From a plasmid: a stretch of 64,000 nt of DNA. The number at the start of each line of letters is the position of its first letter. Positions within the stretch are counted from its first letter, which is position 1. Position numbers: made by a program. The DNA lies in assembly GCF_988243305.1 (NCBI RefSeq), contig NZ_OZ547138.1; one strand, given 5' to 3'. This document shows positions 9,001-12,000 of this stretch, piece after piece.

Positions 9001-12000
9001 AAGTCAGCGGAGAGTGGCTGCCGTTGTGGCTGTCCCGGTATTTCAGTGTAACAGGTGATTGCTGTGATCTATGCCCCATTCGGCTTTCGGTAAACCTGAA
9101 TACCCCACATGAAGAATGCGTGACAGCATGTTTCTGCCGCTGCCGTTCAGGCTGCATTCGCGTCCGTGCGCGAGTATAAAACCTTCATCCCGGAATATCT
9201 CTTCCACTTCTGAAGATTCGAGGGATGCCGGATGAATTAATGAAAATGCCACCGGTCTGAGCATTCTGCCCGTGGTGGAAAAGGTGTCTCTGGTACTGTT
9301 CAGTTGCAGGATATGACGTTTACCTGTTTGCGCACGGGAAAGTGTCTCACTCAGCAGCTGGTCGCTCCATGCGCACGTGCCAATCTGCCATCCCAGACTC
9401 CTGCACGCGGCAAGAGCCGAGCGGAAGCGGTACAGGTCGTATAATGCTGCGTTATTGCCACTTTCCAGCAGTGATTTCAGGGTGTTTGCTACCGGTATGT
9501 CTGAATTGGTGGCCAGCAGTTTTCGCAGGGTAGTGAACTCTTCAGCCATTCCTCTGAACTCGCGCATCTGACGGGCAGTGTCAAGCCAGTTCAGCAGGTA
9601 ACGCCGGCGACGCCGTTCGTTGTTTATGTTGTCCGGGGCGGTGGAGAGTGCTTCGAGCATATTCTCCAGTAACAGAATGACAGGGTTTTCCTGGGATAGA
9701 ATGGTCATAAAGGCGTCCTGAAAAAATGCCCGACAGCCGCTCTCCGTACACCCTCAGGTGTCACCGGTGCCGGGCATTGTGGAAACAGAAGGGAAAAAAA
9801 TCCCGGCCATAAAGGCCGGGAAAAGTCGTCAAATTAAGACAGCAATTTTCATGTCAACGCTCCGTCATCAGATACCAGGTGCAGGAGCAGGGCGATCCTC
9901 GACTCCGGCAGAGGCTGTGCATCAAGCCGGAGGAGGTACTGGTAACGCGCTTTTGTCAGCCAGAGGGTGGAGGCAGCATCCAGCTCCTCCCTGGCTGCCG
10001 GATTGAGCGCAGGATCCGGGTACACTTTCATCAAAGACTGAACGATATCCTCCCTGACGGTTTTGATTTCACCGGCCATTTTCACGAAGTCCAGAAAGGC
10101 ACTGTGACGGCGAAGGTGAGTGAAGCTGTGGCTTTCGGGGTCTGCTTTCAGGAAAAAGTAACCGGGAAACACGGCGTGTATATGTCGACGGTAACCACAG
10201 ACTTTATCCGTGCGGCGGACCTTTTTCAGTATCAGGGGTGTCCAGGGAAGGACGTGTTGTTCGGAAAGCCAGGAAAAGAGATGTTCGCGGTTTTTGCCGG
10301 CAGGGATGTACTGTGCCAGATACCAGTTGCGTTGATGTAATTCACTGATATTCAAAATCCGGAACGCTCCGCGAAAATCGATCCCCGCAGGGGGGCTTCG
10401 ATGTTGTTGTGAACGGCGAATACATAAAGCATGTGTCGGAAACAGCGGCTGACCCACGTTCAGCCTGGCCTGCAGTTCTGACAGGCACATGATTTACGCA
10501 CTCTTGTAAGCCTTGTGGACGGTTTCGAGGCGGGCGAAAACCGACAACTCCTGCAAACAGGATTAATGGCTGAAAAATATATTACATAAGGATGTATCTG
10601 TGGCAAGAGTGAAGATAAGCAGTTGAATAGATCGTTATATTTGATAAGTCAGCATATTATTCTGATTTGTGTGCGGTGTCTGGAGGATTAGATCGTTTAA
10701 AAATTTTATGCGATCTCTTCTACTAAAAATGATGAAAAACACAGCATAAAAGATCGTTTGTGAAATTGTTCATTTTTTTGACAAAGTTCAAAAAAACGAC
10801 GCTTTTTAGGGGGTTAAAGAGGGCAACTGTAACCCTGAGAAATCGTGTCGGCTTTTCAAAGCGGTGGAAAAGGGGTATATTGCGGATCGTTATGCAGTGG
10901 CTTTTGGGATCCTCGCGGTTCGGAAAGCCAGAAAACGGCAGAATGCGCCATAAGGCATTCAGGATGTATGGCAGAAACGACGGCAGTTTGCCGGGGCCGG
11001 AAGGCTGAAAAAAGTTTCAGAAGGCCATAAAGGAAAACCCCCACTATCTTTCCTCGAACTTTGGCGGGCTCGTGAAAGATAGTAGGGGCGTTCACAGAAT
11101 ACGGGATAAGTATATATGAAACCGTACCAGAGATTCAACCCTGTGCAGTGTATAAATACACGGCACAATCGCTCCGCCATAAGCGACAGCTTGTGGCAGG
11201 TCTGAAGAATACTTCATATAACGCAGTACACTGGAGTCAGTTAGCACCCGAAGAGCAGATCCGTTTCTGGGAAGACTATGAAGCGGGAAGGGCGACCACT
11301 TTCCTGGTTGAACCGGAAAGGAAGCGCACGAAGCGCCGTCGCGGTGAGCACTCCACCAAACCCAAATGCGAAAATCCGTCCTGGTATCGTCCGGAGCGCT
11401 ATAAGGCGCTGAGCGGGCAGCTCGGGCACGCCTACAACCGTCTGGTGAAAAAGGACCCGGTGACCGGCGAGCAGAGCCTGCGCATGCACATGTCTCTGCA
11501 TCCTTTTTACGTGCAGAAACGAACGTATGCTGGTCGCAAATATGCTTTCCGTCCGGAAAAACAACGCCTCCTCGATACCGTCTGGCCGGTTCTGGTCAGC
11601 TTCAGTGATGCGGTCACACATACCGTAGGCATGAGTGTTTCCCGTCTGGCCAGAGAAATCAGCCCGAAAGACAGCAAGGGGAAGGTTATTCCGGAACTGG
11701 AAGTGACGGTCTCCCGCCTTTCCCGTTTGCTGGCCGAACAGGTACGTTTTGGTGTGCTGGGTGTTTCAGAGGAAACCCTGTGGGACCGTGAAACCCGCCA
11801 GCGTCTGCCACGTTACGTCTGGATAACACCGGCAGGCTGGCAGATGCTGGGCGTCGACATGGTGAAACTTCACGAACAGCAGCAGAAGCGGTTGCGTGAA
11901 AGTGAAATCCGCCAGCAACTCATCCGGGAAGGCGTACTGCGTGAGGATGAAGATATCTCCGTACATGCGGCCAGAAAACGCTGGTATCTGCAGCGCAGTC

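Follow-up and report, generated by a model that had tools for sequence, protein, structure and literature searches.

What does the regulatory gene at the head of the transfer region of an I-complex plasmid do, and how does RNA polymerase get from it into the genes behind? The question is raised by a stretch of 64,000 nucleotides (nt) of plasmid DNA (NCBI RefSeq assembly GCF_988243305.1, contig NZ_OZ547138.1; hereafter, the window), which is part of an I-complex (IncI-gamma/K/B/O-type) conjugative plasmid. On its minus strand, an open reading frame (ORF) for a NusG/RfaH-like protein, which we identify as traB, is separated from the next gene, traC, by a strong hairpin with a T-tract, here called T1. 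We estimate a probability of about 0.5 that these parts form a self-reinforcing antitermination switch, in which TraB would load in the leader of its own gene and carry RNA polymerase through T1 into traC and the pil and tra genes.

How TraB and TraC switch on the transfer genes has been an open question since 1993, and the IncI-complex plasmids are major carriers of extended-spectrum beta-lactamase and other resistance genes. Transfer of R64, pESBL, and the I-complex plasmid pMS7163B depends on traB and traC, which are its essential positive regulators (PMC10286972; PMC5801416; PMC4288162); deletion of traB in pESI lowered the pilV/S/T transcripts about four-fold and abolished transfer (PMC5013300). 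TraB has already been listed among specialised NusG paralogues (PMC6391919; PMC11880322), and according to reviews the function and mechanism of plasmid NusG paralogues still await experimental assessment. The traB gene and its general role are already known, and thousands of sequenced plasmids carry the copy studied here in identical or almost identical form; what appears to be undescribed in the searchable literature is the family-wide terminator behind traB, the corrected start of the gene, and a structured leader with copies ahead of traA and traH.

Identity and start of TraB

The features of the gene and its product are as follows.

9849..10490, minus strand: ORF as called, 213 amino acids (aa) from ATG 10490
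9849..10355, minus strand: revised traB coding sequence, 168 aa, with TTG start at 10355..10353 and TGA stop at 9851..9849
10356..10490, minus strand: 45-codon "extension" in the 213-aa call, which is non-coding and belongs to the traB leader
10026..10328, minus strand: TraB NGN domain, spanning residues ~10-110 in the 168-aa protein, predicted by AlphaFold2 with a confidence score (pLDDT) of 82-90
10152..10169, minus strand: FPGYFF motif, residues 108-113 of the 213-aa ORF, or 63-68 of the 168-aa protein

Judged by sequence orthology (65% identity over 97% of the length to TraB of IncI1 and pESI) and by the order rep, (traA), traB, traC, pil shared with R64-type traB loci, the ORF is traB, a plasmid-borne NusG/RfaH-type elongation factor of I-complex (IncI/K/B/O/Z) plasmids. 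Its relatives are found in 2,420 PLSDB plasmids.

A preliminary description of the locus, made from the sequence alone, had called the protein a NusG/RfaH-like paralogue with an FPGYFF motif, and both statements hold; a predicted structure without the NGN fold, which it named as a refutation, was not the outcome. Pfam NusG NGN (PF02357) matches residues 55-153 of the 213-aa ORF (E 8.8e-5), and the AlphaFold2 model, built on 55 family members, has an NGN fold, with Foldseek best matches to 5ond (RfaH:ops, E 1e-8) and 9ik0 (PrfaH of IncX3, E 8e-8), followed by autoinhibited RfaH and then NusG proteins (range E 1e-8 to 1e-3). PrfaH 9ik0 is also the closest solved structure by sequence (phmmer, E 1e-7). 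The NCBIfam RfaH match (E 8e-10, 39 bits) lies below the cut-offs of the RfaH equivalogs, 144.5 for TIGR01955 and 124 for NF006534. By the modelled N-terminal NGN fold, TraB belongs to the NusG/Spt5 superfamily, with RfaH and PrfaH as its nearest members. In the FPGYFF motif, all six residues, F63, P64, G65, Y66, F67, and F68, are invariant in 11 aligned lineages, and among the 55 family members P64, Y66, and F68 are invariant, with F63, G65, and F67 at least 90% conserved; the motif aligns with FPNYLF of RfaH. Pfam finds no KOW domain in TraB, and its C-terminal sequence is homologous to RfaH's C-terminal domain, which in the autoinhibited state is helical.

The start of the gene differs from the ORF as called. 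Comparison of lineages indicates that the true start is almost certainly TTG 10355, a weak start codon, which gives a 168-aa product. The codon aligned with it is the traB start in all 19 further loci whose start could be determined (ATG in 17, GTG in IncI1-type), in plasmids or contigs of IncI1, pESI, pJEO5619, Edwardsiella, Serratia, Yersinia, Salmonella, Citrobacter, Enterobacter, Apirhabdus, Hafnia, Pluralibacter, Erwinia, and CwR94, whose TraB proteins are 48-65% identical to that of the window. The N-terminus MNI(E/S) is conserved from the aligned start, and in-frame stops occur 2-45 codons upstream of it in all other lineages with a fixed start. The long ATG-initiated extension is kept in none of the other lineages, the open frame to ATG 10490 being peculiar to the lineage of the window. 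Cedecea, whose TraB is 43% identical, has no start codon at the aligned position. Within the window's lineage, changes are 3.5-5 times more frequent in the extension than in the core; identity to the database protein P0059, for instance, is 62% in the extension and 85% in the core (Fisher p = 0.0013). Since the aligned starts, the upstream stops elsewhere, and the faster change of the extension agree, we take the product to be of 168 aa. The preliminary description had likewise doubted that the extension is translated but made it about 50 aa long; it comprises 45 codons. That the 213-aa ORF is the real product in this lineage is hardly credible: its frame is open and the NCBI annotation pipeline PGAP gives 213 aa in many records, but the starts and stops of the other lineages and the fast-changing extension contradict it, and ATG 10490 sits inside a covarying helix (P1) of the leader described below.

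Public annotation of these proteins is inconsistent, with roughly 1,900 member sequences at 213 aa, thus annotated 45 residues too long if the corrected start holds, and 623 at 168 aa; the NCBI 168-aa version, P0034 (623 member sequences), stands alongside 213-aa versions such as P0049/P0051, and calls are also inconsistent for P0096/P0107. Some gene calls begin in another frame of the leader, which indicates insertions or deletions in the C-run at 10396..10391.

A conserved predicted terminator between traB and traC

Downstream of traB, the following features lie on the same strand.

9794..9821, minus strand: T1, predicted intrinsic terminator with an 8-bp stem (7 G-C), a 5-nt loop, and a T7 tract
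9721..9778, minus strand: second hairpin, longer than T1 and with T6 behind it, immediately upstream of the traC ribosome-binding site
9043..9708, minus strand: traC, second essential regulator, 221 aa, with ATG at 9708; annotated as traC in near-identical plasmids
6403..6429, minus strand: T2, second strong sense-strand terminator, with a 9-bp stem, after the flotillin-like gene and before pilI

T1 has the sequence of an intrinsic (Rho-independent) terminator, a G+C-rich stem-loop with a U-tract directly behind it on the transcribed strand. Its stem TCCCGGCC/GGCCGGGA at 9821..9801 encloses the loop TTTAT and is followed by T7 at 9800..9794; it begins 27 nt past the traB TGA and ends 86 nt ahead of the traC ATG at 9708. 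The predicted folding energy is -18.1 kcal/mol (z = -4.9), none of 200 shuffles was as stable, and T1 is the strongest terminator-like site in positions 1..12000. The strong hairpin with a T-tract that had been noticed between the regulator and the next gene is thus confirmed.

A GC hairpin followed by a T-run stands after the traB stop codon in all ~12 lineages (TraB identity 43-65%), at distances of 9-80 nt, and is built from at least seven different stems (CCCGGCC, ACCCGGC, TGCCCCT, GCCCCAA, CCCCCG, CCCCGGT, CCCCCGG, CCCCTG, GCCCC); these were compared directly, as the MAFFT alignment of the terminators was not structure-consistent. As the stems differ while the hairpin is kept, selection maintains the structure rather than the sequence. 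A consensus scan found no sigma-70-like promoter between T1 and traC, either in the 86-nt spacer of the window or in IncI1.

T1 is the first of three sense-strand terminator-like signals inside the proposed unit (9821-9794), the others being the hairpin with T6 (9778-9721) and T2 (6429-6403). The region 9715-9795 folds at -30.5 kcal/mol (z = -2.1), and T2 at -13.4 kcal/mol (z = -4.3). Immediately downstream of T2, at 6404..6377, is a promoter-like site.

In other lineages, the traB-traC spacer is 97-253 nt long where the traC start is clear (97 nt in pJEO) and longer in others. Between the terminator and traC, eight of these loci (L005, L007, L009, L012, L013, L019-L021) carry a long hairpin, whose outer stem covaries (GGTGTCTG/CAGACACC, GACGTCTG/CAGACGTC, GATGCCTG/CAGGCATC, GTGAAGCC/GGCTTCAC) and which holds an inner conserved motif TGGCGGA(A/G). 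The hairpin at 9721..9778 occupies its place in the window, in a shortened form with T6 after it; in Serratia (L011) the long hairpin is lost.

A conserved structured leader upstream of traB

The region upstream of the revised start contains the following elements.

10353..10499, minus strand: structured leader element of ~145 nt that ends at the traB start codon, defined by alignment and covariation
10363..10386, minus strand: most conserved leader block, GGGGATCGATTTTCGCGGAGCGTT, with invariant columns GGAT, TT, and GCG in 16 lineages
10373..10365, minus strand: CGC-GGA-GCG mini-hairpin inside the GGGGATCGATTTTCGCGGAGCGTT block, candidate ops-like loading site of TraB
10579..10606, minus strand: sole sigma-70-like promoter match upstream of the leader, TTGCCA-16-TAATAT, a consensus match only

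According to the comparative sequence data, the 45-codon extension is part of a conserved, folded, non-coding 5' leader of ~145 nt. The 145-170 nt upstream of the traB start align across lineages, though coding is impossible there. In a four-helix structure derived from the same 16-lineage sequences on which covariation was scored, 85.6% of cells hold standard pairs, versus 31-46% with the partners slid by 1-3 columns, and 11 pairs have changed on both sides, versus 3-6; none of 500 shuffles equalled the structure on any measure. With the paralogous copies described below added, the number of pairs changed on both sides is 15. The helices are a long-range stem P1, which takes in the spurious ATG 10490, a hairpin P3, and P4/P5. 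Covariation extends to one more hairpin, GGCTGA/TCAGCC at 10465-10447: IncI1 has TCCAG/CTGGA, Enterobacter CAAAC/GTTTG, and Edwardsiella GGCTG/CAGCC.

A covariance model of the element, R1, scores 77.9 bits (E 2e-15) on the leader of the window, which is its sole copy there. No Rfam family matches the leader in a search of 8700-11300; the other matches in that interval are the repZ pseudoknot, a CopA-like match, and sub-threshold small RNA (sRNA) matches that are merely the terminator hairpin. An upstream ORF in the leader was considered and rejected: several lineages have an ATG at the aligned position, but the frames stop after 9-40 codons, and the ATG is missing from the Salmonella and Apirhabdus types.

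The mini-hairpin at 10373..10365 retains its form, GC-G(N)A-GC or GC-GAGA-GC, in 16 out of 16 lineages. The ops element of RfaH, GGCGGTAGCGTG, forms a GC-GGTA-GC hairpin on the non-template strand (as in 5ond), and the leader mini-hairpin resembles it; by this analogy, it is a candidate for loading TraB. A precedent is provided by PrfaH, which binds an ops-like hairpin located in the 5' untranslated region (UTR) of its own gene, at -42..-25 (PMC11880322). An ops-like recruitment site had been suggested as something to look for upstream of the gene; no canonical ops was found, and this mini-hairpin is the ops-like candidate there.

Leader copies on other plasmids

The covariance model finds one leader copy ahead of traB in 22 out of 23 sources, the exception being Cedecea, which has the most divergent locus. 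Paralogous copies, both outside the training set of the model, occur on IncI1-type plasmids.

L002 4055..4196, minus strand: paralogous leader copy
L010 798..939, plus strand: paralogous leader copy
L030 15602..15739, plus strand: paralogous leader copy

One full-length copy lies in IncI1 and pESI ~330 nt upstream of traA (74 bits, E 1.5e-14), immediately distal to the region published as "Hft" (high-frequency transfer), also called "superspreader"; another lies between a histidine-phosphatase gene and traH on a plasmid with an IncI1-type tra region (61.5 bits, E 2.5e-12), within a 401-nt region that is at least 99% conserved in 1265 plasmids. From the end of either copy it is 200-300 nt to the next start codon, and this distance favours a function of the element in transcription over one in translation.

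A possible antitermination switch

Four observations make it plausible that T1 serves as a checkpoint: it is kept in all lineages with different stems, no promoter-like site was found in the spacer before traC, TraB is needed for transfer and for transcription of the pil genes, and the leader holds a candidate recruitment element. We infer that TraB loads in the leader and overrides T1. Transcripts initiated upstream of the leader would mostly stop at T1, so that at first only TraB would be made. Once accumulated, TraB would load onto RNA polymerase during transcription of the leader, the candidate site being the invariant GGATC...GC-GNA-GC block with its ops-like mini-hairpin on the non-template strand. 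The loaded polymerase may then become resistant to pausing and termination and pass T1, the next hairpin, and T2 into traC, pil, and the ~43-kb co-directional array to excA. The outcome would be a positive-feedback switch for transfer competence. The antitermination checkpoint proposed in the preliminary description is consistent with the conservation of T1, the lack of a promoter-like site before traC, and the candidate leader element, the action of TraB on the hairpin being the conjectural part of that proposal.

The role of the leader in this scheme deserves a separate estimate. Tentatively, the ~145-nt element may be the cis target of TraB, a module like JUMPStart/ops that loads the plasmid's own NusG paralogue; we regard this as possible but somewhat doubtful.

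Several points weigh against the proposed switch. RfaH-type factors are best known for acting against pausing and Rho, and their effect on strong intrinsic terminators is modest. The C-terminal domain of TraB is modelled by AlphaFold2 as three helices with low confidence (pLDDT ~60). In the 64 kb of the window, the best match to canonical ops (GGCGGTAGnnT; GGCGGTAGCGTG, up to two mismatches) has two mismatches, such matches occur at chance frequency, and none falls in the leader; nor does the short leader motif occur elsewhere in the window beyond chance. No second copy of the leader was found in the window or in 72,000-115,100 of NZ_CP145695.1, together 107 kb of the plasmid that include the pil-tra-trb region, with ~19 kb lying outside the search; given the single copy in the 107 kb searched, other operons must be reached by read-through or via TraC. 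The hairpins that follow the extra IncI1 copies, considered as attenuators, do not exceed shuffled sequences in stability (z = -0.6 and -1.0). Part of the conservation of the leader block could be translational, as it overlaps a likely Shine-Dalgarno sequence in some lineages. Finally, placement of promoters by consensus is not convincing, and activator-dependent promoters, which often have no consensus hexamers, would escape such a scan, including that of the traB-traC spacer.

Alternative explanations

Of the alternatives, the one that survives best treats T1 as a passive, partly leaky attenuator, whose constant read-through fixes a high ratio of TraB to TraC and Pil proteins or which insulates traB, with TraB acting elsewhere, e.g., by countering Rho-dependent polarity within the 43-kb array or by working at different promoter-proximal sites. 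Conservation of T1 alone does not prove regulation by TraB, the window has no canonical ops, and NusG paralogues mainly counter pausing and Rho (PMC7593976). On the other hand, a stem of 8 bp (7 G-C) followed by U7 is expected to be efficient, yet the essential traC lies behind it without a promoter-like site, and the conserved leader just upstream suggests that the polymerase is modified before reaching T1. We consider a passive T1 rather unlikely.

The second alternative concerns the leader, which could mainly be a translational or sRNA riboregulator of traB, working by masking of the ribosome-binding site, as a thermometer, or as an Hfq/FinO-type antisense target, rather than a loading site. 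In some lineages a likely Shine-Dalgarno sequence, GGAG/GAGAG at 4-14 nt from the start codon, shares positions with the conserved block, and in those of Salmonella and Apirhabdus it is able to pair within a GGUUC/GAGCC stem; transfer of pESI is temperature-dependent (PMC5013300), an effect of hfq on traA/traBC has been mentioned as unpublished data (PMC5801416), and the plasmid of the window encodes a ProQ/FinO protein. The copies ahead of traA and traH, however, end well short of the next start; the element thus occurs independently of a ribosome-binding site. We judge a mainly riboregulatory leader unlikely.

Less probable still, T1 could end a monocistronic traB mRNA, with traC and pil transcribed from an activator-dependent promoter of their own in the traB-traC spacer, to whose unit the long conserved spacer hairpin would then belong. 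The long spacers of other lineages with their covarying hairpin fit such an arrangement, as does the tendency of activator-dependent promoters noted above; but only 86 nt separate T1 from the traC ATG in the window, mostly filled by a hairpin, the pJEO spacer is just 97 nt, no promoter-like match occurs in the window or in IncI1, and in pESBL the traC transcripts rise along with upstream Hft insertions (PMC4288162). Taking this into account, a separate traC promoter seems improbable.

If the leader is indeed the cis target of TraB, it would form with the conserved terminator a self-amplifying antitermination device that sets the transfer rate of IncI-complex resistance plasmids. The results on the start codon, the terminator, and the leader make the mechanism of TraB directly testable, and provide cis targets for blocking or tuning conjugation.

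Genetic context of the locus

Positions 8800-11200 are 99-100% identical to hundreds of plasmids from E. coli, Shigella, and Salmonella, in whose records the genes are annotated, in order, as a hypothetical protein or traC, a [quoted passage not shown], and repA. On the minus strand of the window, the ORF at 9849..10490 is followed by traC (9043..9708), a YqiJ-like gene, a flotillin-like gene, and pilI with the remaining pil genes; in the plasmid that matches the window with 100% identity, the ~43 kb from traB to excA have every gene in the same orientation. TraC is 33-39% identical to TraC of other lineages and 74% identical to the database protein P0118. The YqiJ/NfeD-like gene (206 aa) and the flotillin/SPFH gene (564 aa), at 6435..8776 on the minus strand between traC and pilI, stand where IncI1 plasmids carry traD.

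The other flank of traB is occupied by RepZ-type replication control, with repZ at 11148..12224. The Rfam PK-repZ pseudoknot matches 11030..11180 on the plus strand with 174 bits, marking an IncI-type replication control region, and the opposite strand gives a sub-threshold CopA-like antisense match at 11030..11113. Between the traB promoter region and repZ, positions 10630..10900 (plus strand) contain (A)GATCGTT four times in direct orientation and GCGATCT once, inverted; similar GATC-rich repeats occupy the equivalent position in IncI1, and they may be origin or Dam-methylation sites.

Comparison with known systems

The closest system is TraB of the IncI1 plasmids (R64, pESBL, pESI; traABCD cluster), an orthologue at 65% identity with the same rep, traB, traC, pil synteny, which shares both the terminator and the leader element with the window and is an essential positive regulator according to the literature. 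Unlike IncI1, the lineage of the window has no traA and traD, and carries the yqiJ/flotillin-like genes instead; its traB starts with TTG rather than GTG, an accidental open frame yielding the 213-aa annotation; and one leader copy is present in the 107 kb searched of its plasmid, compared with three in IncI1.

LoaP of Bacillus and UpxY of Bacteroides are likewise operon-specific NusG paralogues that need a leader element, and LoaP promotes read-through of intrinsic terminators within its target operons, which is the activity proposed here for TraB. Both belong to unrelated lineages and neither is specific to plasmid transfer; LoaP recognises an RNA hairpin, and UpxY has the antagonist UpxZ.

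RfaH of E. coli, the best structural match, shares with TraB the NGN domain with an FPxYxF motif and the C-terminal domain, which is predicted to be helical in TraB and is homologous (PxxE(A/S)RxxLLLxL). RfaH is a specialised activator of long horizontally acquired operons, a likeness that extends to the DNA site, as the candidate site of TraB is a GC-closed mini-hairpin like that of ops (GC-GGTA-GC). The two proteins differ in that TraB is only ~20% identical to RfaH, scores 39 bits against the TIGR01955 cut-off of 144.5, has no canonical ops, and is encoded on a plasmid as the first gene of its own proposed target unit.

PrfaH/ActX of IncX plasmids belongs to another family (~23% identity) and has a different site sequence; the TraB leader is much longer and structured, and neither an intrinsic terminator nor a TraC-like partner has been reported for PrfaH. 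In other respects, PrfaH offers a close parallel: it is the best PDB match by sequence, a plasmid-borne RfaH-like activator at the head of a transfer operon, and the ops-like recruitment hairpin in its own 5' UTR embodies the logic that we propose for the leader of TraB.

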